Shown piece by piece: positions 20,593 to 40,540 of a DNA stretch of 40,540 bases (within the stretch, counting starts at the first letter, position 1; each line of letters starts with the position of its first letter). The position numbers and the translations under genes were made by a program. The DNA comes from an uncultured Anaerolineae bacterium (GTDB lineage Bacteria; Chloroflexota; Anaerolineae; Aggregatilineales; UBA3940), in contig CAZWUX010000005.1 in assembly GCA_964637665.1 (NCBI GenBank), forward strand, positions 932 to 41,471. Direction: 5' to 3'. The notes under the pieces were generated by a model, which ran no database searches, was not told where the DNA came from, and saw nothing but the letters and a program-made list of their open reading frames with translations.

Positions 20593-20614
20593 CAGATTCT
20601 CATCCGGTTTCACA

Positions 20615-20642
20615 CGCTCCGCATTCGTGCGGGGCGTTTTTT
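20615..20642 (+). terminator. Rho-independent terminator of the PGM/PMM gene
   Basis: CGCTCCGCA-ttcg-TGCGGGGCG followed by TTTTTT. Confidence 0.8.
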
Positions 20643-22419
20643 GTATGTGACAATACTTATATAGGAACTAAAAACAATGGTATATAATGAGTCTTAACCC
20701 ATTACCCGGCAGCTTAACAGGTGTACGAAAATGAAGAGCCAGCGCAGCGATACTCAGATTATACATACAAAGTCAGGCCAGCCGCGTTTTGTTATCCATG
20801 TGAGCCACAAGGGACTCAATCAATATCAGGCGATACGTGCAACCAGTCGCTTTGAGGCAGAGCAAAAAGCTCTGGCAAAGATGGCCCAGTGGGATCAAAT
20901 GTGGGAACGTAAGCAGAAGACCGAACAAAAGAAAGAAACCATAGAGAATAAGAAGGAACTAGCCGCGGATCGAACTGAAGCTGCACAAAAGAGTCTTCAT
21001 GACCTGGAGACGCTTCTAGTCGATGGCTTGAACCCACACAACCCGCTTCCCCGCCCGGAAGAACCAAAATTACCTATCGGGCCAGTTCATCCGGCTATTC
21101 CCTCCGAACCCAAGCTCACAGATCCGGCTTACAACGTTGAACTCACATTTGTGCAAAAAGTGCTGGAAGCTCTCATACCTCCCCGGAAAGAATCGAGGGA
21201 AAGCGAGCTGAAGGTTCGCTATGAACGAGATCACGCGAAATGGGCAAAGGAAAGACAGGTGATGCTTTCTGAGTATGAAGCGCGCCTAGCCCAGCAGAAG
21301 AAGCGTGTTCAGCAGTTGAAAGCACAGCATCAGAAAGAGATAGCGGGCTGGGAGAAACTCCTAGAAGACTACCGGGCAGGGAAGTCCAACGCTGTTCTTC
21401 AATATTGTCTGGCCGTGCTGGCTAAGTCGAGCTACCCGACGCAGTTTCCACCGTCCCGCAAACTCCATTACAACGCCAACACAAAAATGCTCGTCATAGA
21501 TTATCAATTTCCCGCGCCGGATGATTTGCCCACCTTGAAGGAAGTAAGGTATATCCAGTCACGAGATGAGTTTGACGAAAAACACATCAGTGATGCCGAG
21601 CTACGAAGAAGATATGACCAGGTCTTATATCAAATAGCGCTCCGTACGCTCTACGAATTATTCAAGCTGGACGATGCCGAAGTTATCGATGCAATTGTCT
21701 TTCACGGATTAGTTGAATCAATCGATCCATCGACGGGACAAGAGGTGTATGCGTGCGTCTTATCTGTGATGACGAAAAAAGATGAGTTCATGCAAATAAA
21801 CTTGGAGAACGTCGATCCCAAGGCGTGCTTCAAGAAACTCAAGGGGGTTGGTAGTTCAAAGCTGCACAGTCTAACCCCAATTGCTCCTGTCTTAGTCTTG
21901 AATAGGGAGGACAAACGCTTTATCGAAGGGTATAAGGTGGTGGATGGCTTGCAAGAGGGCGATAACCTTGCGGCGATGGATTGGGAGGATTTTGAGCACC
22001 TCGTCCGTGAGTTATTCGAGAAAGAGTTTTCAGGACCGAACAGTGAGGTAAAGGTGACTCGTGCCAGCCGTGATGGCGGCATCGACGCCGTCGTGTTCGA
22101 TCCTGATCCCCTGCATGGGGGCAAAGTGGTTATTCAGGCCAAGCGATACACCAATACGGTGGGGGTTTCCGCCGTTAGAGACTTATATGGCTCTGTTATG
22201 AATGAGGGGGCTAACAAGGGCATACTGGTCACGACATCAGATTATGGCCCTGATGCCCATCAGTTTGCAAAGGACAAACCGCTCGTGCTGCTGAGCGGCA
22301 GCAATCTCCTTCATCTACTCCAAAAACATGGGCATAAAGCCTATATTGATCTAAAAGAGGCAAAGTCCATTCTCGCAGAGGATAAATAGCGAGGTTCGTG
22401 TTGCCGAATCACCCCATAA
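20643..22419. other. Low-G+C single-gene islet between convergent housekeeping genes
   Basis: Two 60-nt samples inside it that I counted by hand gave 48 % and 52 % G+C. A 60-nt sample at the 3' end of nfi gave 67 %. AT-rich upstream region carries TGgTATATAAT (20679-20689). Confidence 0.6.
20731..22389 (+). CDS. 552-aa fusion protein: Lys/Glu/Gln-rich coiled-coil-like N-terminus, uncharacterised middle domain, C-terminal Mrr-type (PD-(D/E)xK, Mrr_cat) restriction endonuclease domain
   Basis: The C-terminus DWEDFEHLVRELFEKEF...SRDGGIDAVVFD...KVVIQAKRYTNTVGVSAVRDLYGSV...GILVTTSDYGPDA matches the Mrr catalytic-domain pattern (D ... Q/E-x-K). AGGTG lies 8 nt before the ATG. Confidence 0.8.
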   Translation: MKSQRSDTQIIHTKSGQPRFVIHVSHKGLNQYQAIRATSRFEAEQKALAKMAQWDQMWERKQKTEQKKETIENKKELAADRTEAAQKSLHDLETLLVDGLNPHNPLPRPEEPKLPIGPVHPAIPSEPKLTDPAYNVELTFVQKVLEALIPPRKESRESELKVRYERDHAKWAKERQVMLSEYEARLAQQKKRVQQLKAQHQKEIAGWEKLLEDYRAGKSNAVLQYCLAVLAKSSYPTQFPPSRKLHYNANTKMLVIDYQFPAPDDLPTLKEVRYIQSRDEFDEKHISDAELRRRYDQVLYQIALRTLYELFKLDDAEVIDAIVFHGLVESIDPSTGQEVYACVLSVMTKKDEFMQINLENVDPKACFKKLKGVGSSKLHSLTPIAPVLVLNREDKRFIEGYKVVDGLQEGDNLAAMDWEDFEHLVRELFEKEFSGPNSEVKVTRASRDGGIDAVVFDPDPLHGGKVVIQAKRYTNTVGVSAVRDLYGSVMNEGANKGILVTTSDYGPDAHQFAKDKPLVLLSGSNLLHLLQKHGHKAYIDLKEAKSILAEDK

Positions 22420-23079
22420 CTAAAACGCCCCGGCCAGATTATGCGCGGCGCGGATCGGCTCAGGCAGCCGGTAGCGAGTCGCGCAGCGCAGCACGAGTTC
22501 CCGCGCGGTGTCGAACGTCGCCCGATGCCCCGGCGAGACGAACACCGGCTTGACGTTCGTCCGCGTGCGCAGCACGACGCCCACCTGCTCGCCCCGATCG
22601 ATCAGCGGGGAGAACGATCCCTTCTCCGCACCCGGCTCGACGTACGCGCCCGTCAGGCGCGATTTCGCGCAGCCGACGGTCGGCGCATCCCACCACAGCC
22701 CGATGTGACTCGCTATCCCGATGCGGCGCGGATGGGCGATCCCCTGCCCATCGAAGATGTAAACGTCCGGCTTGCGGTCGAGCTGTGCGTGCGCGGCGAG
22801 GATCACCTCCCCTTCACGGAAACTCAGCAGCCCGCTGATATATGGGAACGGCGTCGGCATCCGCGCGGTGGCCGATTCGACCATCTCCAGGCCGGGGAAG
22901 GTCATCACGACGATGGCCGCCCGGCTGATCCCCCGCTTCACGCTCACGTCGACACCCCCGATGAACTGCACCGCGTCCACGTCAATGGGCGTCGTGATGT
23001 CGACCTGCGCGGCGAGATCTTTTTGAAGATGAATCGCGTCGCGCAGGGTGAGGTTCCAGAGATGCGAGATAGCGGGCAT
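22420..23079 (-). CDS. nfi: Endonuclease V (deoxyinosine 3' endonuclease)
   Basis: LQKDLAAQV..., IGGVDVS, PYISGLLSFREG and IFDGQGIAHPRRIGIASHIGL...TVGCAKSRL are canonical. Confidence 0.9.
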   Translation of the reverse strand: MPAISHLWNLTLRDAIHLQKDLAAQVDITTPIDVDAVQFIGGVDVSVKRGISRAAIVVMTFPGLEMVESATARMPTPFPYISGLLSFREGEVILAAHAQLDRKPDVYIFDGQGIAHPRRIGIASHIGLWWDAPTVGCAKSRLTGAYVEPGAEKGSFSPLIDRGEQVGVVLRTRTNVKPVFVSPGHRATFDTARELVLRCATRYRLPEPIRAAHNLAGAF

Positions 23080-29889: not shown

Positions 29890-30456
29890 ATGATGGAGGC
29901 TGCCATCGAGAACCCGCGCCCGATGAACCGGCGCGAGTTCATGTTCTATATCTGGGGGGCGTCAATGACGCTGGCGATGGCCGGTTCGGCGGGCGTCGTG
30001 CTGTGGTTTGCCTACCCCCGCTTCCGTGAGGGCGAATTCGGCGGCCTGTTCAGCGTTCCGGTCAGCGCGGTGCCACAGTTGGACAGCCCCCCGCAGGAGA
30101 ATCCGCAGGGTCGTTTCTGGCTGGTCAACACGGATGACGGTGTGCTGGCGCTTTACAAGGTCTGCACCCATCTCGGCTGCCTGTATAAATGGGTCCCGAG
30201 CAACGACCGGTTTGAATGCCCCTGTCATGGCTCTAAATTCCATAAAGATGGCAATTGGATCGAAGGCCCCGCGCCCCGCAATCTGGACCGCTTCGTGATC
30301 CAGGCGGTCGACGCGAACGGCGAGGTCGTCGCCGAGACGCCGACCGGCGATGCCAACACCGATCCACAGGCGGGCAACCCGATCACGCTCCCGGCGGAGG
30401 CCGTCGAACTGCAAATCGACACAGGCGACCGCGTTAAAGGGGCGCTGCACGACTGA
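29890..30456 (+). CDS. Rieske [2Fe-2S] protein, b6f/bc-type, with Tat-like signal anchor
   Basis: CTHLGC...CPCHGS boxes (CTHLGCLYKWVPSNDRFECPCHGSKF) followed by GPAPRNL. NRREFMF twin-arginine motif plus a hydrophobic helix. AGGAGGAG upstream. Confidence 0.9.
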   Translation: MMEAAIENPRPMNRREFMFYIWGASMTLAMAGSAGVVLWFAYPRFREGEFGGLFSVPVSAVPQLDSPPQENPQGRFWLVNTDDGVLALYKVCTHLGCLYKWVPSNDRFECPCHGSKFHKDGNWIEGPAPRNLDRFVIQAVDANGEVVAETPTGDANTDPQAGNPITLPAEAVELQIDTGDRVKGALHD

Positions 30457-30540
30457 TATCTGCTTCCTTCTTCTTTAAAAGGAGGCGTTGAAGGAGCCAT
30501 TTATCGATGCAATCTAATCTTGCCGGGGAGACACTGGCCG

Positions 30541-31467
30541 ATGGCCGATAACGAAGCCGAGGTTTACGAGGAGGAACGCCCGCACAGCAGCGGCCTGAAG
30601 AGCTTCTTCGTCGACACGATGTCGCTTGAGCAGCGGCAGCTTTTTGGCACGCTCATTTTTTTCGCCATTATTCTCGTCGCCGGATGGGTGGGCGTCAACG
30701 AGCCGAGACGGATGCAGACCTTTACCACGCAGTACGAGGGCCGCTCCATCGAGCGCGGCGCGGTGATCTTCAACCAGAACTGCTCGTCCTGTCATGGTCT
30801 CGACGGCAGGGGGCTGGAGGGCGTCGCCCCCGCGCTGAACAGCCCGGCGCTGTTTGACGGAACGCGCCTCTCCGAACTCGGCTGGACCGGCACGCTGTAC
30901 GACTACGTCCAACTGACCGTCTCCGCCGGACGCCCCGCCAAGAGCGGCGACTGGCCCCAGCCGATGCCCACCTGGAGCCAGGAGTACGGCGGCCCGATGC
31001 GCCCCGATCAGGTTCGCGACGTGGTGAACTACGTCATGAACTATGGGAAATTCTACGAAGAGGGCTACGAGGGCGAGATACCCGAAGTCGCGCTGCCCAC
31101 CGAGGAAGCGCCGTCCTATGAGCCGGTCGGGACCGATGTCACCGCCGAACTGCCTGAGGGCGACCCGGCGCGCGGAGAGGCGCTCTTTACCGGCGAGGAG
31201 CTTGCGCCGGACGGGACGAATCTGGCCTGCACGAGCTGCCACTCACTGGACGGCTCCGTGCTCGTCGGCCCATCGTTGCAGGGAATCGGGAGCATAGACT
31301 TGCCCGAAGGCTACGACTCGCTCGACATGTACCTGCACGAATCCATCGTCCAGCCGCAGGCCTACAAGGTGCCGGGCTTCGAGGATATCAACATGCCCGA
31401 TACCTTCGGCGAGCGGCTCGACGCGCAGAGTCTGGCAGACCTGATCGCCTTCCTGAAGACTCAGTAG
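30541..31467 (+). CDS. Membrane-anchored dihaem cytochrome c
   Basis: Two CxxCH motifs (CSSCHG, CTSCHS) and an N-terminal TM helix LFGTLIFFAIILVAGWVGV. The start is uncertain (ATG 30541 chosen; in-frame TTG at 30520 in the ORF track). Confidence 0.85.
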   Translation: MADNEAEVYEEERPHSSGLKSFFVDTMSLEQRQLFGTLIFFAIILVAGWVGVNEPRRMQTFTTQYEGRSIERGAVIFNQNCSSCHGLDGRGLEGVAPALNSPALFDGTRLSELGWTGTLYDYVQLTVSAGRPAKSGDWPQPMPTWSQEYGGPMRPDQVRDVVNYVMNYGKFYEEGYEGEIPEVALPTEEAPSYEPVGTDVTAELPEGDPARGEALFTGEELAPDGTNLACTSCHSLDGSVLVGPSLQGIGSIDLPEGYDSLDMYLHESIVQPQAYKVPGFEDINMPDTFGERLDAQSLADLIAFLKTQ

Positions 31468-31581
31468 CGGCGGCACGCTGGCTGCCCTGAACGTGACAGA
31501 TGAGGGCGGCGCTGCCCTGTGGCGGCAGCCGCCCTGTTGTTCCCCTCAGGGGCTTGCTGCTGATCGCTGTTGGAGGCCACA

Positions 31582-32412
31582 ATGCGCTTGCGAAAGATCA
31601 TCTTTCCCGCCGGAGTGATTGGGCTGCTCGCCGCCGCGCTGGCGGTCGCCGGTCCGGTCACCGCGCAGGATGGGGGCGACCCGGAGAACGGCGCGGCGTT
31701 GTATGCATCGAACTGCCTCGTGTGTCACGGCCCGAACGGCGAGGGCCGGGTCGGGGCGACGCTCGATCAGGTGTTCGCGACGATCGACACGGATACTTTC
31801 CTCACCGAGGCCATCAGCCGGGGTGTTCAGGGGTCGATGATGCCCGCCTGGAGCCAGAACTTCGGCGGCCCGCTGACCTCCAGCGAGGTTCAGGACATCG
31901 TCGCCTACATCGAGTCGTGGGGAACGGCCATTGAGCCGCCCGTGCCCGCCCCAGGCCCACCCCCGCAGAACATCCCACCCGTGCCGGAGGTCGACGGCGA
32001 CCCGGAGGCCGGGTACACCGTCTACGCGCAGAACTGTGTCGCCTGTCACGGCCCGGAGGGCGAGGGCCGCATTGGCGCGACGCTGGACAGGCCATTTTCC
32101 GCCATCTCGCCCGACGCCTTCATCGTCCAGACCGTCAGCCGGGGGGTCGAGGGATCGCTGATGCCACCCTTCGCCCAGGCAAACGGCGGCCCACTCACCG
32201 AGCAGCAAATCAACGACGTGGCGGCCTACGTCTTCAGCATCCAGCGGACGGCTCCCGCGCCTTCAGGCGAGCGGGTCGGGCGCGGCAGCGCGCTGCCGCT
32301 GGTCTTCATCCTGATCGGTGTCCTCGTCGTCATTATCGCGCTGGGGGTGAGCGTGCAGCGGCGCGGAGGCGAGACACCCGGCCCGCCGGATCATGAACAC
32401 GACGATCACTAG
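31582..32412 (+). CDS. Dihaem cytochrome c (two tandem class-I domains) with signal peptide, C-terminal TM anchor and His/Asp-rich tail
   Basis: Internal duplication DPENGAALYASNCLVCHGPNGEGRVGATLD / DPEAGYTVYAQNCVACHGPEGEGRIGATLD, each followed by G(S)xMP. TM helix LPLVFILIGVLVVIIALGV. Tail PPDHEHDDH. The ATG at 31582 has GGAGG 6 nt upstream. Confidence 0.85.
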   Translation: MRLRKIIFPAGVIGLLAAALAVAGPVTAQDGGDPENGAALYASNCLVCHGPNGEGRVGATLDQVFATIDTDTFLTEAISRGVQGSMMPAWSQNFGGPLTSSEVQDIVAYIESWGTAIEPPVPAPGPPPQNIPPVPEVDGDPEAGYTVYAQNCVACHGPEGEGRIGATLDRPFSAISPDAFIVQTVSRGVEGSLMPPFAQANGGPLTEQQINDVAAYVFSIQRTAPAPSGERVGRGSALPLVFILIGVLVVIIALGVSVQRRGGETPGPPDHEHDDH

Positions 32413-32416
32413 GAGC

Positions 32417-33346
32417 ATGATGACTGCCAACCGAACGCAGAGGATGTGGCTCACCGTCGCGCTGCTGGCCCTGACGCTGGCACTGGCGGGGGCGATCCTG
32501 CCCTCCCACGCATGGGCACAGGCCGACATCACCCTCGAAACCGTAACGGTGCGCGTCTGGCCGGAGTTCGACCAGCCCTCCGCGCTCGTCTTCTACGTCG
32601 GCGATCTGCCTGCGGATACCGCTTTTCCGGTCGATGTTCGCATCCCGATCCCATCCGGCGTCGATGTGAACGCCGTCGCCTACACGGATGAGACGACGGG
32701 CGAATTGTTCTCCGCCGATTACGAGGTGGTGGACGGCGCGGTCACCATGTCACTGCCGGGGCCAACCTTCTGGATCGAGTTCTACGACGATCTGACCATC
32801 GACGGCGATACCCGCCAGTACGAGGCGACGTGGACCTCCCCCTATCTGGTCGAGACGCTGATCTGGGAGATCGAGCTGCCCGTCGGCGGCACGAATTTCG
32901 AACTCGACACGGGGGCCGCCAGCGAAGCGGTCACCGATCCGAACGGCCTACCCGCTTTCCGGGTCACGGAGACGGGCGTCGACGCGGGTGAAACGGCAGC
33001 GCTGGCCTTCACCTACACCAAGGCGGACGACGCGCTGTCCATCGACCAGATACAACCTGCTGCCGCTGCCGGGGGGGAAACCACCGCGACGCCGCCACCA
33101 GCGTCCTCCAACGAGCCGCCAACGTGGCTGATCATCCTGCTGCTCGTGGTGGGGCTGGGCCTCGTCGGGCTGGGCGTGTGGTGGTTCCTGCGACAGTCCG
33201 GCTCAGCCCGTCCATCGGGCGGCAGACGCGCCCCCGGAAGCCGCTCTAGCGGCGGAGGCGGCGCGCGCTTCTGCACGAAGTGCGGCGCACGGGCTCAGCC
33301 CGGCGACAAGTTCTGCCGCGAGTGCGGCACGAAGCTGCGGACATAA
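32417..33346 (+). CDS. Bitopic membrane protein: signal peptide, extracytoplasmic domain of unknown family, TM helix, cytoplasmic Gly/Arg/Ser linker and C-terminal zinc-ribbon
   Basis: Signal MMTANRTQRMWLTVALLALTLALAGAILPSHAWA. TM helix WLIILLLVVGLGLVGLGVWWF. Zinc ribbon FCTKCGARAQPGDKFCRECG. The exact start is uncertain. Confidence 0.6.
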   Translation: MMTANRTQRMWLTVALLALTLALAGAILPSHAWAQADITLETVTVRVWPEFDQPSALVFYVGDLPADTAFPVDVRIPIPSGVDVNAVAYTDETTGELFSADYEVVDGAVTMSLPGPTFWIEFYDDLTIDGDTRQYEATWTSPYLVETLIWEIELPVGGTNFELDTGAASEAVTDPNGLPAFRVTETGVDAGETAALAFTYTKADDALSIDQIQPAAAAGGETTATPPPASSNEPPTWLIILLLVVGLGLVGLGVWWFLRQSGSARPSGGRRAPGSRSSGGGGARFCTKCGARAQPGDKFCRECGTKLRT

Positions 33347-33364
33347 GCCATCCACACGAAATGG

Positions 33365-33399
33365 ATGCCCCTGCCGCCGGTTGGCAGGGGCATTTTGTT
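33365..33399 (+). terminator. Rho-independent terminator closing the Rieske/cytochrome transcription unit
   Basis: ATGCCCCTGCC-gccggtt-GGCAGGGGCAT followed by TTTTGTT. Confidence 0.7.
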
Positions 33400-33455
33400 A
33401 TGCCATCATAGCATAGGTACGATGGACGGTTGAACATCCCCGGAAAGGACGGCCT

Positions 33456-34139
33456 GTGACGGTGTCGGCCACCGATTTTTCGCTCTCGGAGCGGCTGTCT
33501 CAACATCCGTATTTTCGCAACCTTGCCCCCGGCGGCGTCGAGCTGCTCGCCTCGTCGGCGCTGCGCCGCCGTTTTGCGGCGGGCGAAGTGCTCTTTCTGG
33601 AGGGCGATCCGTCCGCCGGGCTGTGGGTCGTCGAGCGGGGGCGGATCAAGGTCTACAAGCTGCACGTCGAGGGGCGCGAGCACATCCTCCACCTGTTCGG
33701 CCCCGGCGATTCGTTCAACGAGGTCGCCGCGCTCGACGGCGGCCCGAATCCGGCCAACGCGGGCGCGCTCAGCGATGCGGTCGTCTGGGTCGTGCCCGCC
33801 GACGTGATTCAGTCGATGCTGGCGCGCGATCCGTCGCTGGCGCAGGCCGTGATTCACGGGATGAGCGAGCGGATGCGAATGCTCGTCCAGCAGATCGAAG
33901 CCCTCGCCCTGTACGCCGTGCAGGCGCGGCTCGCCCGCTTCCTGATTGACCGGTCGGAGGACCCGGCGCTCGAAGGGCCGGGCATCACCCGCGCGGCGAT
34001 TGCCGCCCACCTCGCCACCACGCCCGAAACCGTCAGCCGGGCGCTGCGCGCGCTGGAGGAGGCCGGGGCGATCCGCTTCGACCGCCACCGTATTGTGATC
34101 GTTGACCTCGACCTGCTGCGCAGCCTCGCCCTGCTGTAG
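33456..34139 (+). CDS. Crp/Fnr family transcriptional regulator, without the FNR N-terminal Cys cluster (Dnr/NnrR-like class by that criterion)
   Basis: cNMP-binding-type beta-roll (FLEGDPSAGLWVVERGRIKVY) and C-terminal HTH ITRAAIAAHLATTPETVSRALRALEEAGAI with the E--SR recognition motif. There are no cysteines anywhere in the 227-aa protein. Confidence 0.9.
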   Translation: MTVSATDFSLSERLSQHPYFRNLAPGGVELLASSALRRRFAAGEVLFLEGDPSAGLWVVERGRIKVYKLHVEGREHILHLFGPGDSFNEVAALDGGPNPANAGALSDAVVWVVPADVIQSMLARDPSLAQAVIHGMSERMRMLVQQIEALALYAVQARLARFLIDRSEDPALEGPGITRAAIAAHLATTPETVSRALRALEEAGAIRFDRHRIVIVDLDLLRSLALL

Positions 34140-34248
34140 CCCTCCCCACTGCTCGCCAACCCGCCGATTTCGCGCATCGCCCCGGCGGTTCATGGCGGTA
34201 CGTGCCTCGTGAGCCGTTCGTTTTCAGGCCCGGTGATCTGCATCCCAA

Positions 34249-34262
34249 TTGATCTGGATCAA
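34249..34262 (+). promoter_or_regulatory. Perfect FNR/Dnr-type box TTGAT-N4-ATCAA
   Basis: TTGATCTGGATCAA is centred 56.5 nt upstream of the ferredoxin ATG. A TATCCT -10-like hexamer at 34285-34290 fits a class II (-41.5) arrangement. Confidence 0.65.
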
Positions 34263-34311
34263 GGAAGAACAGGTTTAACGCGGTTATCCTGCAATCAGGA
34301 GATCGTGATTT

Positions 34312-34542
34312 ATGGCACAACCATTTGACCGTGCGTGGCTGCCCATCATCGACGGCACGCGCTGCGAGGGGTGCGGCGACTGCGTGGCGGCCTGTCCGGC
34401 GGGCGCGCTGGCATTGGTGGAGGGGCGGGCCGCGCTCATCCATCCGGCTGACTGCACCTACTGCACGGCCTGCGAAGACCTCTGCCCGAACGGCGCGATT
34501 GCGCTTCCCTTCCTGATTTGCCGGGGGGACGCGGAGACGTGA
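34312..34542 (+). CDS. 2x[4Fe-4S] ferredoxin (76 aa)
   Basis: CEGCGDCVAACP and CTYCTACEDLCP. Confidence 0.9.
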   Translation: MAQPFDRAWLPIIDGTRCEGCGDCVAACPAGALALVEGRAALIHPADCTYCTACEDLCPNGAIALPFLICRGDAET

Positions 34543-34659
34543 AGGCCGTTTAATGGCAGGGGGATGCCTGGCCGCGCGGCGGAGGGAGGCGTCGGCTGGC
34601 AGGTGGGGATCGCCATTCCGTAAATTCAGGTTAGGGAGTCGCATACCACGAGGTTGCAG

Positions 34660-35055
34660 ATGCCTTTCCTGACCCGCCTTTTTATCCGTACCTCACTGGC
34701 CTATTTCCTTCTCGCGCTCGTCGCGGGGATTCTGCTGGCCCTGCCCGTGCCAGTGCCGGGGTTGCGCCCGGTTTACTTCCACCTGCTGATGGTCGGCTGG
34801 GTGACGCAGCTTATCGTCGGCGTGGCGCACTGGATGTTCCCGAAATATTCCGCCGACAGGCCGCGCGGCAGCCGGACGCTGGCCTGGGCGACGTTCATCC
34901 TGCTCAATGCCGGGCTGTTGATGCGCGCCCTCGGCGAGCCGCTGGTCGCCTCTGGCGCTCCGGTGGGTGGGCTGCTGGCCGCGTCGGCGGTCCTTCAAGC
35001 GCTCGGCGGCTGGACGTTCGTCGTCAACGTGTGGCCCCGCGTGAAGGAGCGCTAG
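34660..35055 (+). CDS. Four-helix integral membrane protein, unknown family (paralogue A)
   Basis: About 4 predicted TM helices. Shares H..L.(L)MVGW..QL..GVA.W..P+.S..RPR ... LLNAG.L ... ALG...F....W.RVK with the next gene. ATG at 34660 (GAGG upstream); the track starts at TTG 34654. Confidence 0.6.
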   Translation: MPFLTRLFIRTSLAYFLLALVAGILLALPVPVPGLRPVYFHLLMVGWVTQLIVGVAHWMFPKYSADRPRGSRTLAWATFILLNAGLLMRALGEPLVASGAPVGGLLAASAVLQALGGWTFVVNVWPRVKER

Positions 35056-35460
35056 ATGCCGCGCCTCAGCACGTGGATGGTGCGCGTGGCGCTCGTCCAC
35101 TTCGGCCTCGGATTCACGTTCGGCGCGCTGATGCTGTGGAACAAAGGACTGCCGGTGTCGGGCGCGCTGTGGCGGCTGCTGCCTCTCCACACCGAGCTGG
35201 TTCTCATGGGCTGGACCGTTCAGCTTGCGATGGGCGTCGCGTTCTGGATTCTGCCGCGCTTCTCCGGCAGGCGTCCGCGTGCGTGGCTGGCATGGCTGGC
35301 CTTCGGGCTGCTGAACGCGGGCGTGCTGAGCGTCTGTGCCGGGCGCTGGTGGCCTGAGGTGGGCGGGCTCATCGCGGTTGGCCGGATCGTCGAAGCGCTG
35401 GGTGTGGCAGCCTTCGCTGCGCACGCATGGTCACGCGTCAAGTCGCCGGGCGCGCGGTGA
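35056..35460 (+). CDS. Four-helix integral membrane protein, unknown family (paralogue B)
   Basis: Its ATG directly abuts the stop of paralogue A (TAGATG). It carries the same motif set (LHTELVLMGWTVQLAMGVAFWILPRFSGRRPR, LLNAGVL, EALGVAAFAAHAWSRVK). Confidence 0.6.
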   Translation: MPRLSTWMVRVALVHFGLGFTFGALMLWNKGLPVSGALWRLLPLHTELVLMGWTVQLAMGVAFWILPRFSGRRPRAWLAWLAFGLLNAGVLSVCAGRWWPEVGGLIAVGRIVEALGVAAFAAHAWSRVKSPGAR

Positions 35461-35494
35461 TAGATCGATGGATGGACTGAAAGGGGGGAGCCTC

Positions 35495-36448
35495 ATGCTC
35501 GGCTCATTGGCGGATACAAATTTTGCGGAAGAGCTGCTGGCCGTGCAGGCGCGAAGCTGGCCCTCGTGGGAGCTGGCCGGTCTGCGCCCCACGCCGGAGG
35601 AAACCTGGGAGCGCTTGCGTGTGTTCCTCAAATTCGGTCAGGACGACCGGGCGGCGATGCTCCAAACCGTCGAGCCGCTTCTCAAGCGGGCGCACGAGCT
35701 TGTCGTCAGCAACTACGATCACCTCCTGTCCGACGAGGGCGCAGCGGCGGTTCTTGGCTGGGAGGAGGGCCCCGACCCGGCTCACCTCGCCGAGCGCCGC
35801 CAGTTTTTCACAGTGTGGATCGCCCGCACGCTCGGCATGGACCTGAGCGACGATTTCGCCCGCTACCTGTTCCGGGCGGGCCGGATGCACGCCGCCCACG
35901 GCCCGCGCGAGGTCCACGTCCCGGAGTTGTACGTCACCGGGGCGATCAGCCTCGTCCACGCGGCGTTCGCGCGCTTTCTGGCCGAGGAGATGCCGGGTGC
36001 GCCCGTCGTGCCGCCCGCGCTGGCAGGCTGGAATAAGATGTTGGCGATGCACCTTCAAATGATGCTCGACGGCTACCACGCGGCGCGCGACGTGGATCGG
36101 GGCGATTTCGCCGTCCCGGTCAGGTTGTTCGGGCTGGTGCGGGCGGCGGCAGGCCGCAGTGAGCTGCCCATCGCCGTTCCGATCGGCGCGACGGTGGCGG
36201 ACGTGCTGCGCAAGTTCTTCAACTACTATCCTCACATCCGGGGCCTCGTGCTTGAGAAGCGCGAAAGGGAGGCCGATCAGCCGGAGGGTGTCGGCACGCC
36301 CTGGGTCACGCTCGACCGGGTTTACGTCGTGCGGAATCACCCGGCGTGGCGAGTCCTGCTTAACGGGCGCAACGTCGCGCACCTCGGCGGGCCGGACGTT
36401 TCCGTGTCCGAGGGGGATGACCTCCAGCTGTTCTCGCCCGGACGCTAG
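35495..36448 (+). CDS. Protoglobin (globin-coupled-sensor-type haem domain) fused to a C-terminal MoaD/ThiS-like beta-grasp domain that lacks the terminal Gly-Gly
   Basis: The N-terminal part aligns by eye with Methanosarcina protoglobin as I remember it (..VSNYDHLL.., ERRQFFTVWIARTL, FRAGRMHAAHG with a candidate proximal His, YVTGAISLV, WNKMLAMHLQMMLDGY). The C-terminal VRLFGLVRAAAGRSELPIAVPIGATVADVLRKFFNYYP...VLLNGRNVAHLGGPDVSVSEGDDLQLFSPGR follows the MoaD pattern (V.FFA.vRe..G......tV..L......P....avN...v.....l.dGDEvAffPPvtGG) but ends in PGR. The start is either the ATG at 35495 (GGGGGAG upstream) or the ATG at 35468. Confidence 0.8.
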   Translation: MLGSLADTNFAEELLAVQARSWPSWELAGLRPTPEETWERLRVFLKFGQDDRAAMLQTVEPLLKRAHELVVSNYDHLLSDEGAAAVLGWEEGPDPAHLAERRQFFTVWIARTLGMDLSDDFARYLFRAGRMHAAHGPREVHVPELYVTGAISLVHAAFARFLAEEMPGAPVVPPALAGWNKMLAMHLQMMLDGYHAARDVDRGDFAVPVRLFGLVRAAAGRSELPIAVPIGATVADVLRKFFNYYPHIRGLVLEKREREADQPEGVGTPWVTLDRVYVVRNHPAWRVLLNGRNVAHLGGPDVSVSEGDDLQLFSPGR

Positions 36449-36484
36449 CGATCAACGTCGTTTACGGAAAGGTGATGCACTGAT

Positions 36485-36817
36485 ATGGACCCCTATACCT
36501 ATCTAGCCGATCTGCCGGGGATGCTGCCCGGCGTGCCTCAGGACAGCATCCTCAGCCGGACGGTGTTCGCCGACGGCCAGATGAAGACCGTGCTGTTCCG
36601 GTTTGCCGCGGGCGAGGAGCTTTCCGAGCACACGTCGACCCAGACGGCGGTTCTGTATTTCGTCGAGGGCGAGGCCAGCGTGACGCTGGCCGGGGATGAG
36701 GTCGAGGCCCGGCCCGGTACGTGGATTCACATGCAGCCGCGTCTGGAGCACAGCATCCGGGCGCGCACCCCGGTCACGATGCTGCTGATGATGATCCAGC
36801 CGCTCGAAGGCGAGTAG
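36485..36817 (+). CDS. Cupin-domain protein (110 aa)
   Basis: Cupin_2-like GEELSEHTS...YFVEGEA...G.......PGTWIHMQPRLEHSIRA. Confidence 0.75.
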   Translation: MDPYTYLADLPGMLPGVPQDSILSRTVFADGQMKTVLFRFAAGEELSEHTSTQTAVLYFVEGEASVTLAGDEVEARPGTWIHMQPRLEHSIRARTPVTMLLMMIQPLEGE

Positions 36818-36906
36818 ATCGGCCTCACGCTACCTCGTGAGCCTCCCGGCTCGCGCTCGACAGACCTGTTTCTGTATCCCCACTGCCTCACAGGAAGGGG
36901 CGAACG

Positions 36907-38196
36907 ATGGAACATGATGCCAACGAGAACGATCGCGGATCGCTGCGCGTGCTGATCGTCGGGCTGGTGGCGGTGGTCGCCGTCATCGGCCTGGCGCTCG
37001 TCGTGGGTGCGGTCGGCACGGGCCTGGGCCGCGCGGAGCAGGGCCGGGTGGACGCGCTGGCGAACAGCCGCAACGACTGTGTGACGTGCCACCGCCGCGA
37101 GACGCCCGGCATTGTCGCGCAGTACGGGGCCAGCACGATGGCCGCCGCCGAGGTGGTCTGCCAGGACTGCCACGAGGTCGCAGCGGACTACCCCGGCGCG
37201 GTCGAGCACGAAGGCACCTACGTGCTGCCCATGCCGACGACCGCCATGTGCTCGGAGTGCCACGCGGCGGAGGTCGCCCAGTTCAACCGGAGCCGCCACG
37301 GGCTGCCCGCCTACGTCGCCTACGCCGGGACCGAGGGCCTGTCGGACGAGCACCTTGCCTTTTATCAGAGCATCACCGAGGCCGATCCACCTCCCAACCC
37401 GGAGCGCAACGCCCTGTTCGCGCTCGAAGGCGAGGAGATCACCCAATTTGCTTGTGAGCAGTGCCACGACGTGGGCAAACCAGCAGCAGACGGCTCGGTG
37501 GGCGACTGCACGAAGTGCCACCTGCGCCACGAGTTCAGCCTGTCGCAGGTCCGCAAGCCGGAGACGTGCAACTACTGCCATATCGGCCCCGATCATCCGC
37601 AGTATGAGATCTACGTCGAGTCGCCGCACGGCATCGCCTACGCGACGGGCGGCGATACGTGGAACTGGGAGGCCGAACCCGGCACGCTGACGGTCGAGGA
37701 TTTCCCGGCCCCGACGTGCGCCACCTGCCATATCAGCGGGTTCGGCACGCAGGCCACGACGCACGACGTGGGCGAGCGCCTGACGTGGTATCTGTTCTCA
37801 CCGGTCAGCGAGCGCCGCCCATCGTGGCAGGATAACCGGCTGCGGATGCAGGGTGTGTGCTTCGAGTGCCACAATCAGGATTTCGTCGAGGACTACTACG
37901 ACAACGGCGATCTCGCCGTCGAGCACGTCAACGAGTGGGTGCTGGAGAGCCAGTCGATCACGCAGCCGCTCGCCGAAAACGGCCTGCTCACCGACGAGCC
38001 ATTCGACGAGCCAATCGATTTCACGTCGTTTAACCTGTGGCATCACTGGGGCCGCACGGCCAAGTTCGGCGTGTGGATGCAGGGGCCGGACTACACCCAG
38101 TGGCACGGCGCTTATGAGGTGCTGCACGACCTCGCGGAGCTTCGCGAGATGACGGACGAGAAACTCTCGGAGGCCGGGATCGAGGCAGGGCGGTAG
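36907..38196 (+). CDS. Octahaem cytochrome c of the hydroxylamine oxidoreductase (HAO) family, with N-terminal TM/signal anchor
   Basis: Eight CxxCH motifs (CVTCH, CQDCH, CSECH, CEQCH, CTKCH, CNYCH, CATCH, CFECH). CTKCHLRHEFSLSQVRKPETCNYCHIGPDHPQYEIYVESPHG closely parallels N. europaea HAO [42 protein letters not shown] (from memory). Hydrophobic segment LRVLIVGLVAVVAVIGLALVVGAVG. Confidence 0.9.
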   Translation: MEHDANENDRGSLRVLIVGLVAVVAVIGLALVVGAVGTGLGRAEQGRVDALANSRNDCVTCHRRETPGIVAQYGASTMAAAEVVCQDCHEVAADYPGAVEHEGTYVLPMPTTAMCSECHAAEVAQFNRSRHGLPAYVAYAGTEGLSDEHLAFYQSITEADPPPNPERNALFALEGEEITQFACEQCHDVGKPAADGSVGDCTKCHLRHEFSLSQVRKPETCNYCHIGPDHPQYEIYVESPHGIAYATGGDTWNWEAEPGTLTVEDFPAPTCATCHISGFGTQATTHDVGERLTWYLFSPVSERRPSWQDNRLRMQGVCFECHNQDFVEDYYDNGDLAVEHVNEWVLESQSITQPLAENGLLTDEPFDEPIDFTSFNLWHHWGRTAKFGVWMQGPDYTQWHGAYEVLHDLAELREMTDEKLSEAGIEAGR

Positions 38197-38198
38197 CC

Positions 38199-39107
38199 AT
38201 GTACCATCTGGCAACGCTCTACCCACCGGTCAGACGGGTCAGGCTGCCACTGAGCCGCGATCAGTTGATGCTGCTCATGGCGGCGATCAACGAGATATTC
38301 CTCGGCGTCGACATCTATCTGGCGCACAGCATCAGCGGGACCATCGTGCCCAACGAGTGGATTCCCATCATCTTCGGTCCGCTCGCCGGGGCGCTGCTGC
38401 TCATCGCCGGGTTGATCGCGATCCGCCGCCGTTCGCTGGCGACGGTTATCGCCAACGTCGTGTTTGTGGCGAGCATCGCCGTCGGCCTGCTCGGCGCGTA
38501 CTTCCACTGGCTGCGGGCCGTGCGCCCATTTGCCCCGCCCGGCGAGCGCCTGACCGTGACCCTGCTGATCTGGGCGCCGCCCGTGATCGGCCCCCTGATG
38601 TTCGCGATGGTCGGCTGGCTGGGCATCAGCGCGGCATGGGTCGAGAACCCGCCGGGCAGCGGCAGGCTCGTCCTGCTTGGCAACCGGACGCTCAATCTGC
38701 CCTACAGCAAGACGCGCGCCTACTTCTTCATCGTCGGGCTGGGCACGCTTGCCACCGTGCTGAGCAGCGTGCTCGATCACGCCCGCGCCGGTTTCGCCAA
38801 CCCCTGGCTGTGGCTGCCGACCGCCGCCGGGGTGTTCGGGACCGCCGTCGCGCTGACGCTCGGCACGATCCGGCGGCCCACCCCCACCGACCTCGCCACC
38901 TACGCGGGGGCGATGGTCCTGCTGATCCTCGTCGGCGTCGTGGGGGCGGCCCTGCACGTCAACGACAGCCTGACGAGCCGGGGCGTGTTCGTCGCCGAGC
39001 GGTTCATACGCGGCGCACCGGTCCTCGCCCCGCTACTGTTCGCCAACATGGGGGTGCTGGGGCTGATCGCGCTGCTCGATCCACGCGAATCACCCCCCGG
39101 ATCGTAG
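38199..39107 (+). CDS. Polytopic (about 8 TM) membrane protein with internal 2 x 4-TM duplication and four positionally conserved His; unknown family
   Basis: The ATG lies 2 nt after the HAO-like stop. Matched halves: YLAHS / VLDHA, GAYFHW / GAALHV and APPVIGPLMFAMVGWLG / GAPVLAPLLFANMGVLG. Confidence 0.7.
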   Translation: MYHLATLYPPVRRVRLPLSRDQLMLLMAAINEIFLGVDIYLAHSISGTIVPNEWIPIIFGPLAGALLLIAGLIAIRRRSLATVIANVVFVASIAVGLLGAYFHWLRAVRPFAPPGERLTVTLLIWAPPVIGPLMFAMVGWLGISAAWVENPPGSGRLVLLGNRTLNLPYSKTRAYFFIVGLGTLATVLSSVLDHARAGFANPWLWLPTAAGVFGTAVALTLGTIRRPTPTDLATYAGAMVLLILVGVVGAALHVNDSLTSRGVFVAERFIRGAPVLAPLLFANMGVLGLIALLDPRESPPGS

Positions 39108-39146
39108 CGCTCTGCTGGACGCATCAAAGGCGCTCTGGTAAACTCG

Positions 39147-39172
39147 CGAGGGCCAGTTCGAACTGGCCCTCG
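39147..39172. terminator. 26-nt perfect palindrome (strong hairpin) at the end of the gene string; candidate bidirectional or factor-assisted terminator, or a protein-binding site
   Basis: CGAGGGCCAGTTCGAACTGGCCCTCG. There is no U-tract on either side. Confidence 0.45.
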
Positions 39173-39380
39173 TTGTGCGCCGGATCGATTGGGTTTTGCT
39201 TGTGCATTTTGCTACAATCCGGGTTGTTGATGTCTGGATGCGATTTGTGATAAGTGTCATTTTTAAAACCTGACAAATGATGGGCGCAGTCTGCCGCGTC
39301 TTTGGATATACTAGGTAAAATAAACAACAATTATCTTAATTCTTCTCGAAAAGAACCTTTCGATTTCTTAGGAGAGAGAC

Positions 39381-39905
39381 GTGGCTGAGACGACAATGCC
39401 AACCTCGCAGGTTCCACCCGTCAAGAGTGGTGGGCGCGCCAAGTTCCTCGTCGCCGGTGTGATCTTGCTGGCTGCTATCGTGTTCCTGATCGTCACGAAC
39501 CTGACATCCCAGCAGGAGTACTTCATGACGGTCAACGAGCTGATGTCCCGCCAGGACGAGATCGCAGGGCATAACGTTCGTATCTCCGGCGTGGTGCTGG
39601 GCGATACGATCGAGTACGACGGCGAGACGCTGAGCTTCACCATCGCGAACATCCCCGACTCGGCGGCTGAGATCGAGGACGAGGGCGGTCTGGCCGAAGT
39701 GCTGCATCAGGCCGTCAACGATACAAGCTCCCAGCGCGTTCAGGTTGTGCTATATGACGAACCGAAGCCCGACCTGCTCAAGCACGAGGCCCAGGCCATC
39801 GTCACCGGCTCGCTGGGGGATGACGGCGTGTTCTACGCGGATGAGCTGCTTCTGAAGTGCCCCACCCGCTACGAGGAAGCTGTTCCAGAGCAGGCCGCCA
39901 GATAA
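39381..39905 (+). CDS. ccmE: Cytochrome c maturation haem chaperone CcmE, CxxxY variant
   Basis: N-terminal anchor FLVAGVILLAAIVFLIV, an OB-fold-like body (VRISGVVLGDTIEYDGETLSFTI) and PDLLKHEAQAIVTGSL. The C-terminal ELLLKCPTRYEE aligns with E. coli EVLAKHDENYTP. GTG start. Confidence 0.85.
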   Translation: MAETTMPTSQVPPVKSGGRAKFLVAGVILLAAIVFLIVTNLTSQQEYFMTVNELMSRQDEIAGHNVRISGVVLGDTIEYDGETLSFTIANIPDSAAEIEDEGGLAEVLHQAVNDTSSQRVQVVLYDEPKPDLLKHEAQAIVTGSLGDDGVFYADELLLKCPTRYEEAVPEQAAR

Positions 39906-40107
39906 GCGGTCTGTCGCCAGCTATTCGCTCCGGGCGCGGTGAAATACATCCTGTGCCCGGTTCTTCACGCCATTTCCAGCCACCCCCACAGGGGTAGGGT
40001 GGCTGGACGGGCCGCAGGCCCGCCGGGCGTAGCCCGGATGGCGTGTCAAGCAGATCCGCGAAGCGGATTGCCATTCACGCCCGGCCATGTGAAGGAGTCT
40101 GTCTCAC

Positions 40108-40540
40108 GTGAACCCCGAACTCGGTACGATTTTTCTGCTGCTGGCCCTCGCCAGCACGATCTACGCGCTGATCGCGTCGCTCGTCGGCGGGCGTAACGAG
40201 AACGACGCCCTCGTCGAGAGCGCCCGTAACGCGGCGGTGATGGTCTGGCCGCTGCTCACGCTGGCGGTGATCCTGCTGATCGCGCACCTCGTCAGCGGCG
40301 ATTTCGGCGTCTCGTATGTGTGGGCCGTGACGGATCGCAATATGCCCACCTATCTGAAGATCACCGCGCTGTGGGGATCGCAGGCCGGGTCACTGCTCTT
40401 CTGGTCATGGCTGATGAGCACCTTCACCTCCGCCGTGATGCTGCGTAACTGGCGGCGCGAGCGGACCATCATGCCCTGGGTCATCGCCGCAACGATGGGC
40501 ACGCTCGCCAATTTCATACTGCTCGTCACCTTCTGGGAGA
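40108..40540 (+). CDS. ccmF: Cytochrome c-type biogenesis protein CcmF (haem lyase component), 5' part; continues beyond the window
   Basis: My own translation from GTG 40108 gives VNPELGTIFLLLALASTIYALIASLVGG...GDFGVSYVWAVTDRNMPTYLKITALWGSQAGSLLFWSWLMS. This parallels E. coli CcmF ([36 protein letters not shown]). Not in the ORF track because there is no stop within the window. Confidence 0.85.
   Translation, partial: MNPELGTIFLLLALASTIYALIASLVGGRNENDALVESARNAAVMVWPLLTLAVILLIAHLVSGDFGVSYVWAVTDRNMPTYLKITALWGSQAGSLLFWSWLMSTFTSAVMLRNWRRERTIMPWVIAATMGTLANFILLVTFWE

Follow-up and report, generated by a model that had tools for sequence, protein, structure and literature searches.

A mosaic gene cluster with an FNR box in an Anaerolineae bacterium, centred on an HAO-family octahaem cytochrome c and an uncharacterised eight-helix membrane partner

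Introduction

HAO-family octahaem cytochromes c are described from the hydroxylamine:ubiquinone redox module (HURM) of ammonia-oxidising bacteria, encoded by hao-haoB-cycA-cycB, and from reductive systems such as the epsilon-Hao, the anammox HAOr (Kustc0458/0457) and IhOCC of Ignicoccus. A further member of the family is encoded in a gene cluster at positions 33456-39172 of a 40.5-kb stretch of DNA (40,540 nucleotides in full, hereafter the window) from contig CAZWUX010000005.1 of an uncultured Anaerolineae bacterium, together with a membrane protein of eight predicted transmembrane helices (the 8-TM protein) whose gene lies directly downstream. With the hao cluster of ammonia oxidisers, the window shares an HAO-family octahaem protein, alike in its haem motifs and in its distal Asp-His pair, and a next downstream gene coding for a co-conserved membrane-associated protein of unknown function. 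It differs in that no c554 or cM552 gene is present in 33456-39905, where Cytochrome_C554 profile matches fall only inside the octahaem protein itself, and in that the partner is a polytopic, His-bearing protein of twice four helices matching no Pfam or NCBIfam model. In addition, the membrane anchor of the octahaem protein is N-terminal instead of C-terminal, its cross-linking tyrosine is only a candidate, and the cluster appears to be under FNR-type control in a non-nitrifying phylum. The reductive HAOs have the octahaem HAO fold in common with the window protein, IhOCC (PDB 4qo5) being its best match among solved structures, whereas their partners are c-type cytochromes, either dihaem or NapC/NrfH-type, and not integral 8-TM proteins; besides, IhOCC has a Val at the distal His position, where the window protein keeps the His. 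Finally, the NrfHA and NrfABCD systems would resemble the one proposed here in that a membrane subunit of its own connects a periplasmic multihaem N-oxide reductase with the quinone pool, but the window contains no homologue of NrfH, NrfB, NrfC or NrfD, and the CxxCK active-site haem of NrfA is absent from its octahaem protein, all eight motifs being CxxCH.

An earlier note, made from the letters of the window, had proposed the cluster as a self-contained, seven-gene module for the redox chemistry of N-oxides or hydroxylamine under a Dnr-type regulator, unlike the hao-haoB-cycA-cycB, nrfAH and nor operons. This last point stands, as no c554/cM552 and no Nrf partner is found in the cluster; more broadly, the Pfam and NCBIfam models reveal no NapC/NrfH, cM552, c554 or HaoB-like gene in it. 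The view of an N-oxide-related cluster that is controlled through an FNR box and has an HAO-family octahaem protein with uncharacterised membrane partners at its centre is likewise supported, by FNR boxes and orthologous regulators in other genomes and by a cassette with the copper nitrite reductase NirK. As for the self-contained module, a lack of synteny, named beforehand as a refutation, was observed for five of the seven genes, and only Hao and the 8-TM protein are constant. The Hao/8-TM pair is therefore the actual novelty of the locus, while the seven-gene set is a local mosaic.

Conservation of the Hao/8-TM pair

The two genes of the pair are the following.

36907..38196, + strand: HAO-family octahaem cytochrome c with an N-terminal membrane anchor, 429 aa; eight CxxCH motifs, PF13447 at 113 bits.
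38199..39107, + strand: 8-TM protein (2x4 transmembrane helices) with four invariant His; no Pfam, NCBIfam or PDB relative.

Homologues of the octahaem protein fall into more than 2,900 protein clusters and, among the 120 best matches listed (about 70% identity or more), those that carry an organism name belong to Chloroflexota. A scan of one genome per species yielded at least 584 stretches encoding such a protein, from which 80 loci with flanks of up to 10 kb were kept (loci are designated below by L numbers), belonging to Anaerolineales, Caldilineales, Promineifilaceae, Ardenticatenaceae, Aggregatilinea and Thermoflexus. Their neighbourhoods were scored by tblastn with every protein of the window and, independently, by all-against-all clustering of open reading frames (ORFs), with concordant outcomes. 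The 8-TM gene is located directly downstream of the octahaem gene in 80 of the 80 loci, the gap being 2 nt in the window. Far behind come a Crp-family regulator (17-19 loci), a cupin upstream of Hao (13), the ferredoxin (7), CcmE (6), the pair of four-helix (4-TM) proteins (3) and the protoglobin fusion (1), and no other gene family is present in more than about 10% of the loci. The full seven-gene order was recovered from no other genome, either among the 80 loci or in a metagenome scan.

The association also extends beyond close relatives. Remote homologues of the 8-TM protein were collected by an exhaustive HMMER search and five of their neighbourhoods were examined; the pair is kept in the remote relatives L088, L093 and L094. 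One homologue at 33-34% identity is encoded by a gene overlapping with the end of an octahaem gene of 50% identity; the contig also bears GerA/GerB/GerC spore-germination genes and thus very probably comes from a member of the Bacillota. Homologues at 30% and 33% identity are found behind one or two PF13447 octahaem genes. A homologue at 29% identity follows a monohaem cytochrome c and not a Hao, which argues for a general redox-partner role of the 8-TM protein. The most remote one examined, at 25% identity, follows a hemerythrin-like ORF (L090 2-292), named by eye.

The literature searched describes neither the Chloroflexota Hao/8-TM pair nor the 4-TM pair, though other journals may do so, and Chloroflexota 'hao' genes appear there only as annotation items of metagenome surveys.

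The 8-TM protein

The earlier note had described the 8-TM protein as internally duplicated and His-bearing, and this is borne out by its two four-helix halves, which are 30% identical (E 3e-9). Four His residues (H43, H103, H194 and H253) do not vary among 23 sequences ranging down to 24% identity, and sit in the duplicated motifs AH...EWxP...VGxxGxxFH...APxxAPL. The AlphaFold2 model (pLDDT 74.7, pTM 0.77) consists of eight helices, at the C-terminal ends of the first, third, fifth and seventh of which the four His are placed. The Arg/Lys counts of the loops between these helices (13 versus 7) favour, by the positive-inside rule, a topology with the N-terminus inside, so that all four His would lie near the outer membrane face, toward the periplasmic enzyme. 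His residues on alternate helices of a four-helix bundle represent the classical bis-His haem b geometry, and it is because the 8-TM protein fits it that one haem per repeat is proposed.

Several known identities were considered for this protein. In Pfam, neither the window protein (E <= 0.1) nor any of ten remote homologues has a match, and in NCBIfam the window protein has none at E <= 0.1. A HaoB identity, judged through the NCBIfam and Pfam models and the names of homologues only, gave no match; the names are uninformative in that all 2504 homologous clusters are unnamed save one stray 'NapE' label. A profile of the 23 sequences finds nothing among the PDB sequences at E <= 10, and Foldseek no structural relative with an E-value below 0.16 or a TM-score above 0.33. 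Membership of a known family was rejected on the Pfam, NCBIfam, PDB and Foldseek outcomes, as was the idea that the 8-TM protein is a fusion of two 4-TM proteins of the kind encoded further upstream, for which the hhalign probability is 0.35%.

A different function can be conceived for such a protein. It could be a channel or transporter for nitrite, ammonium or hydroxylamine, a metal-binding protein, or a factor for the assembly or maturation of the octahaem enzyme. This would agree with the gathering of the four His at one membrane face instead of across the membrane, with the lack of likeness to any known cytochrome b family, and with the remote homologue that stands behind a hemerythrin-like gene and not a cytochrome. 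Nevertheless, four of the five remote homologues examined directly follow c-type cytochrome genes, including the monohaem one, all eight haem sites of the octahaem protein are of the standard CxxCH type so that no special lyase is needed, and the enzyme would otherwise be left with no visible link to the quinone pool. A function outside electron transfer is hence considered quite improbable.

The octahaem cytochrome and the direction of catalysis

The window protein belongs to the HAO family, as its eight CxxCH motifs are 100% conserved among the 80 sequences and as profile comparison with PDB retrieves IhOCC (4qo5, 1.1e-39), the Nitrosomonas europaea HAO (NeHAO, 5.8e-31), kustc1061 (2.1e-23), HDH (1.2e-21) and also HAOr. 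The distal pair D229-H230, aligned within CHIGPDHP, corresponds to D267-H268 of NeHAO and is conserved in 79-80 of the 80 sequences, while Y295, aligned to Tyr334 of NeHAO, is Tyr in 58 and Phe in 18 of them. The hydrophobic N-terminal helix is conserved across the family, and a weak NrfH-like match (2.8e-5) covers this anchor of the octahaem protein together with its first haem.

The direction in which such an enzyme works is tied to the tyrosine cross-link. IhOCC is described as a nitrite reductase devoid of P460 (PMC9250108), HAOs without the tyrosine cross-link reduce nitrite, nitric oxide (NO) and hydroxylamine (PMC8042395), and bacterial HAOs outside anammox and ammonia-oxidising bacteria are mostly inferred to be reductive, often with a His at the key site (PMC12758564). 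In the light of this literature, the octahaem enzyme of the window is favoured to be reductive.

The opposite reading is that of an oxidative, P460-type HAO in which Tyr396 would cross-link to haem 4 of the neighbouring subunit, hydroxylamine would be converted to NO and the electrons would reach quinone via the 8-TM protein, which would make the pair a minimal hydroxylamine:quinone redox module running forward. Enzymes of this type are covalent homotrimers with a Soret band at 460-475 nm. The PDB chains show that the cross-linking Tyr467 of NeHAO belongs to the sequence GGWTY467TEGW in the loop joining the last two helices, and the window protein carries GPDY396TQWH400G in the topologically equivalent loop, Tyr396 being conserved in 79 of the 80 sequences. 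In the best local alignment, Y396-T falls on Y467-T, and the near-complete retention of the distal Asp-His pair would suit such an enzyme, less so Y295, which is Tyr in only 58 of the 80 sequences. The score of this local alignment is, however, equal to the mean of shuffled sequences, and the register conflicts with that of MAFFT, so that the equivalent of Tyr467 is Y396, Q398/W399 or H400 depending on the alignment, none of which is significant. Similarly, the family profile gives no significant alignment with the verified C-terminus of NeHAO, and a C-terminal peptide used as a query against PDB recovers IhOCC alone, and weakly. Anchoring on HxNP...GW with the Hao paralogue of L094 (HLNPDYLHWYGW, compared with HVNPGGWTYTEGW of NeHAO) suggests a one-residue indel, which would put Gln398 or Trp399, and not Tyr396, at the cross-link position. 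Moreover, IhOCC, described as having no P460 (PMC9250108), carries a Trp at the position of Tyr396, and both the FNR-type control and the link with nitrite-reductase cassettes speak for an anaerobic reduction of N-oxides, in line with what is inferred for most HAOs outside anammox and ammonia-oxidising bacteria (PMC12758564). An oxidative enzyme is therefore regarded as unlikely. The attempt to settle the cross-linking tyrosine from sequence was given up, the profile, MAFFT and local alignments being either non-significant or contradictory.

One lineage (L094 1378-3526 and L095 998-3527) has two tandem Hao paralogues ahead of the 8-TM gene. They differ in the cross-link loop (PESLQSEG versus PDYLHWYG), and this difference could be useful for finding the functional residue.

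Regulator, FNR box and ferredoxin

The 5' end of the cluster consists of three elements.

33456..34139, + strand: Crp/Fnr-family regulator, Cys-less, 227 aa, with an ETVSR recognition helix of FNR type; Pfam cNMP_binding 5.7e-24, HTH_Crp_2 4.1e-16.
34249..34262, + strand: perfect FNR/Dnr-type box, TTGATCTGGATCAA, 50 nt 5' of the ferredoxin start codon.
34312..34542, + strand: 2x[4Fe-4S] ferredoxin, 76 aa, cytoplasmic; Pfam Fer4/Fer4_10/Fer4_7.

The regulator had been called Cys-less in the earlier note and indeed contains no cysteine at all; it therefore does not have the N-terminal cysteine cluster which forms the [4Fe-4S] oxygen sensor of FNR sensu stricto. Its cNMP_binding and HTH_Crp_2 domains, its ETVSR sequence, an ExxSR-type motif of FNR-box binders, and the cognate TTGAT-N4-ATCAA site place it in the FNR-box-binding subgroup of Crp/Fnr proteins (Dnr/NnrR/FixK-like), with scores far below the cut-off for all NCBIfam equivalogs. 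The box, also claimed to be perfect, is the sole match in the 40.5-kb window, against a chance expectation of 0.01 per window. With the Dnr/NnrR/FixK-type regulators the window protein thus has in common its architecture, the ExxSR helix, the perfect box, the lack of the FNR Cys cluster and the link to nitrite reductase and related targets; it differs from them in that it matches no equivalog and is followed by a small 2x[4Fe-4S] ferredoxin, and the earlier label 'Dnr-type' is a putative one. To our knowledge, no Dnr system described so far has such a ferredoxin behind its regulator.

Six of the 80 loci (L040, L041, L044, L045, L055 and L061) encode an orthologue of the regulator (48-60% identity, with ExxSR and 0-3 Cys at non-conserved positions), and a perfect TTGAT-N4-ATCAA box is found in all six. 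The Hao operon is preceded by a perfect box in eight loci out of the 80, each of which, as far as its contig reaches, has an orthologous ExxSR regulator, and in three loci (L041, L045 and L061) one box lies beside the regulator gene and a second one directly upstream of the Hao operon. The usual order in the genomes bearing an orthologue is box, 76-aa ferredoxin, usually cupin, Hao and 8-TM, except that in L045 a flavodoxin replaces the ferredoxin ahead of Hao. A 76-aa ferredoxin of identical type follows the regulator in L044, L045, L061, L096 and L097. Among other Anaerolineae, this regulator-box-ferredoxin cassette leads in L045 to NirK (TIGR02376, 335 bits, above cut-off) and then to the 4-TM pair, and in L096 a Cu-oxidase-domain protein, read as NirK-like, takes the place of NirK after the cassette.

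Behind the Cys-less regulator, an FNR box and the 76-aa ferredoxin thus recur regardless of the next enzyme, and regulator and ferredoxin may form a regulator/iron-sulfur sensing couple. A YwiC-like membrane protein (PF14256) joins the nitrite-reductase/4-TM cassettes in L045 (1644-2459, - strand) and L082 (6409-7227, - strand), the gene in L082 having its own perfect FNR box.

The 4-TM proteins, the protoglobin fusion and the cupin

Four genes separate the ferredoxin from the octahaem gene.

34660..35055, + strand: 4-TM protein a, miniature haem-copper-oxidase subunit-I-like; sub-threshold Pfam COX1 match, profile positions 3-103.
35056..35460, + strand: 4-TM protein b, miniature haem-copper-oxidase subunit-I-like; Pfam COX1 9.9e-8, under cut-off.
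35495..36448, + strand: protoglobin fused to a MoaD/ThiS-like beta-grasp domain, 317 aa, C-terminal PGR; Pfam Protoglobin 7.5e-12, ThiS 1.7e-4.
36485..36817, + strand: small cupin, 110 aa; Pfam Cupin_2 1.5e-9.

The two 4-TM proteins are paralogous, as had been noticed (38% identity, E 2e-22), and members of their family, which comprises at least 1,656 homologous clusters, some of them named 'cbb3-type cytochrome oxidase subunit I', are invariably encoded in tandem pairs, each protein being about 135 aa long. The AlphaFold2 model of protein b (pLDDT 85.5) has ba3/aa3 oxidase subunit I as its best Foldseek match (TM-score 0.70-0.74, probability 1.0), covering about 150 of about 550 residues, and the COX1 likeness is confined to profile positions of about 2-108, below the Pfam cut-off. 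Since the model matches oxidase subunit I over four helices, the proteins are read as predicted miniature haem-copper-oxidase-like modules. They resemble subunit I of haem-copper oxidases and NO reductases in sequence, in fold and in a near-invariant His in the second helix, but fall outside that superfamily in having four of the twelve helices, no ligands of the binuclear centre and a tandem arrangement. Such pairs were seen in the window (34660-35460) and in L020, L045, L063, L082, L083, L085 and L096-L098. Besides NirK in L045, their neighbours include a cytochrome c/cd1-type protein in L082 and the hydroxylamine reductase Hcp (837 bits) in L020; the pair is directly upstream of Hao in a Thermoflexus metagenome-assembled genome (MAG; L063), and elsewhere it stands alone or beside AhpC or PCuAC/SCO1. 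As the pair turns up again and again beside enzymes that convert nitrite, NO or hydroxylamine, a role related to NO is suggested for it.

The protoglobin domain is confirmed (PF11563, 46 bits against a cut-off of 25; 42.9 bits in the homologue of L047), its H132 and H135 are invariant in a three-sequence alignment, and a gas-sensing role of this predicted domain is plausible. The MoaD/ThiS-like beta-grasp domain proposed in the earlier note is retained as a borderline assignment, the ThiS match (22.5 bits) being exactly at the cut-off and that to NCBIfam SAMP1 under it, but a carrier function does not hold: the protein ends in FSPGR, and its homologue in FPPGR, and because both copies end in PGR and not in Gly-Gly, the domain is not a sulfur carrier or modifier. 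The one other copy found of the fusion (52% identity) is encoded in an Ardenticatenaceae MAG (L047), immediately after Hao and the 8-TM gene and behind a different Crp-family regulator; a metagenome scan for further protoglobin/beta-grasp fusions gave the window's own contig only. As a separate observation, five loci (L006, L003, L032 and others) encode, 2-5 kb upstream of Hao, a ThiS/MoaD-like protein that does end in GG, together with a ThiF/MoeB-like E1, a cysteine-synthase-like protein and a JAMM-like protease, labelled by eye. This set resembles a sulfur-carrier cysteine pathway and its linkage to Hao is probably coincidental.

The window joins two recurrent cassettes, one running from regulator, box and ferredoxin to the 4-TM pair and the other formed by Hao and the 8-TM gene, here after the cupin, with the rare protoglobin fusion between them, and the accessory genes are parts of an N-oxide regulon whose cassettes recombine. 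A more radical view would be that the regulator-ferredoxin unit, the 4-TM pair, the protoglobin fusion and the cupin-Hao-8-TM block are juxtaposed by chance, the accessory genes serving general nitrosative or oxidative stress defence outside the Hao chemistry. Each block does occur without the others, as exemplified by the 4-TM pair, found alone or by AhpC, PCuAC/SCO1, NirK, Hcp or the cd1-like protein, and the whole gene order is unique to the window among the genomes found. On the other hand, the genes share one strand, short gaps, a single FNR box and no strong internal terminator, the fusion recurs beside Hao/8-TM in L047, and the 4-TM pair recurs directly 5' of Hao in L063. Chance juxtaposition consequently appears rather unlikely, though a serious contender.

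Organisation of the cluster and neighbouring genes

The recomputed ORF coordinates agree with the gene order on the + strand and with the gaps of 117, 0, 34, 36, 89 and 2 nt given previously, and profile searches with Pfam and NCBIfam confirm every domain assignment of the earlier note. The public record of the contig (41,471 bp) carries identical gene calls, and the contig is represented by a 3.1-kb JGI metagenome contig as well. Two elements mark the 3' border.

39147..39172, + strand: perfect 26-nt palindrome, probable end-of-operon hairpin; 12-bp GC-rich stem, UUCG loop.
39381-39905, downstream of the cluster: CcmE, assigned by profile search.

The palindrome forms a 12-bp hairpin (z = -3.12, equalled by 0 of 200 shuffles) with no U-tract, and the weak hairpins found inside the cluster are none of them stronger, which is in keeping with the claim that no convincing internal terminator exists. 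No structured RNA was matched in Rfam within 33000-40540. Concerning the cytochrome c maturation genes that had been noted downstream, CcmE is indeed there, but its linkage to Hao in just six of the 80 loci led to the rejection of the ccm genes as part of the unit. The spacer at 39173-39380, between the palindrome and ccmE, is about 200 nt long and AT-rich (about 58% GC), and probably holds a ccm promoter, which would make these genes a separate transcription unit.

Upstream of the cluster, on the same strand (29890-33346), are encoded a Rieske protein, two dihaem c-type cytochromes, one anchored N-terminally and the other C-terminally, and a membrane protein ending in a zinc ribbon. Homologues of the dihaem cytochromes are found near Hao in a few other loci, and no cytochrome b gene lies near this group. 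Further away, the stretch 20000-23000 has a GC content of 0.49-0.60, compared with about 0.66 elsewhere, and includes a gene for an Mrr-type restriction endonuclease at 20731-22389; it is probably a horizontally acquired island.

Proposed mechanism

The cluster is proposed to be a mosaic, FNR-type-regulated operon whose core would be a two-subunit, membrane-bound, quinone-coupled redox module for N-oxides or hydroxylamine, probably working reductively, a reading in which confidence is evenly balanced. It builds on the observed Hao/8-TM pairing, the invariant His, the boxes accompanied by orthologous regulators and the occurrence of the accessory genes next to N-oxide enzymes, from which we infer haem and quinone binding by the 8-TM protein, the catalytic direction, the substrates and co-transcription. 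Under anoxia and/or in the presence of NO, the Cys-less FNR-family regulator would activate transcription from the box. The octahaem enzyme, exported to the periplasm and tethered by its N-terminal helix, would dock on the 8-TM subunit and reduce nitrite, NO and/or hydroxylamine, by reverse-HURM or NrfA-like chemistry. The 8-TM subunit would bind one cofactor per four-helix repeat, most simply a bis-His haem b, near the outer membrane face, oxidise menaquinol at that face and pass the electrons to haem 1 of the octahaem protein, thereby standing in for c554/cM552, for NapC/NrfH or for the dihaem partner of the anammox HAOr. The 4-TM pair, the protoglobin fusion, the cupin and the ferredoxin would serve as accessory genes against nitrite and NO stress within this regulon, dealing with the sensing of, or the damage by, NO and hydroxylamine at the membrane and on the cytoplasmic side.

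Several observations weigh against this proposal. Tyr396 sits in the loop that carries Tyr467 in NeHAO, which would allow an oxidative P460 enzyme. Confidence in the 8-TM model is moderate (pLDDT 74.7) and no known fold resembles it, the cofactor and the quinone site being deduced, and four His at one membrane face suit a metal site or a channel equally well. It is hard to see where the ferredoxin, cupin and protoglobin, which are cytoplasmic, would fit into an electron chain of the periplasm, and an 8-bp hairpin in the 89-nt gap ahead of hao raises the possibility that the genes do not form one transcript. Finally, about 70 of the 80 loci have neither an FNR box nor an orthologous regulator, so that anaerobic or NO control is not a general property of the Hao/8-TM pair. 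It is worth pointing out that the mosaic-operon reading and the three alternatives discussed above concern different aspects of the locus and are not mutually exclusive.

A bolder possibility, put forward tentatively and as somewhat short of probable, is that the 8-TM protein is the founding member of a new class of integral-membrane, His-ligated (haem b or metal) quinol:multihaem-cytochrome oxidoreductases, that its pair with the HAO-like enzyme constitutes a 'mini-HURM', and that the 4-TM pair is a new membrane device for handling NO.

Significance

Genes of this HAO-like clade of Chloroflexota are common in public data, with more than 2,900 clusters and at least 584 species-level genomes, and the database names of this clade vary between 'hydroxylamine dehydrogenase', 'nitrate reductase' and 'multiheme cytochrome'. 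Given such names and such abundance, these genes are likely counted as nitrification markers in metagenome surveys, and their obligate pairing with the 8-TM gene, along with an FNR-type nitrite/NO regulon in some genomes, changes how the survey counts are to be read. The 8-TM family and the 4-TM pair are membrane-protein families devoid of functional annotation and represent a gap in family and structure libraries, while the Hao/8-TM pair offers biochemists a concrete two-protein target in organisms dominant in wastewater flocs, anammox granules and sediments. If the 'mini-HURM' proposal is true, hundreds of Anaerolineae species would gain a so far unrecognised way of respiring or detoxifying nitrite, NO or hydroxylamine, which would extend to some spore-formers, as judged from the adjacent Ger genes; if Tyr396 does cross-link, the unrecognised route would instead be a hydroxylamine-oxidising, NO-producing one.

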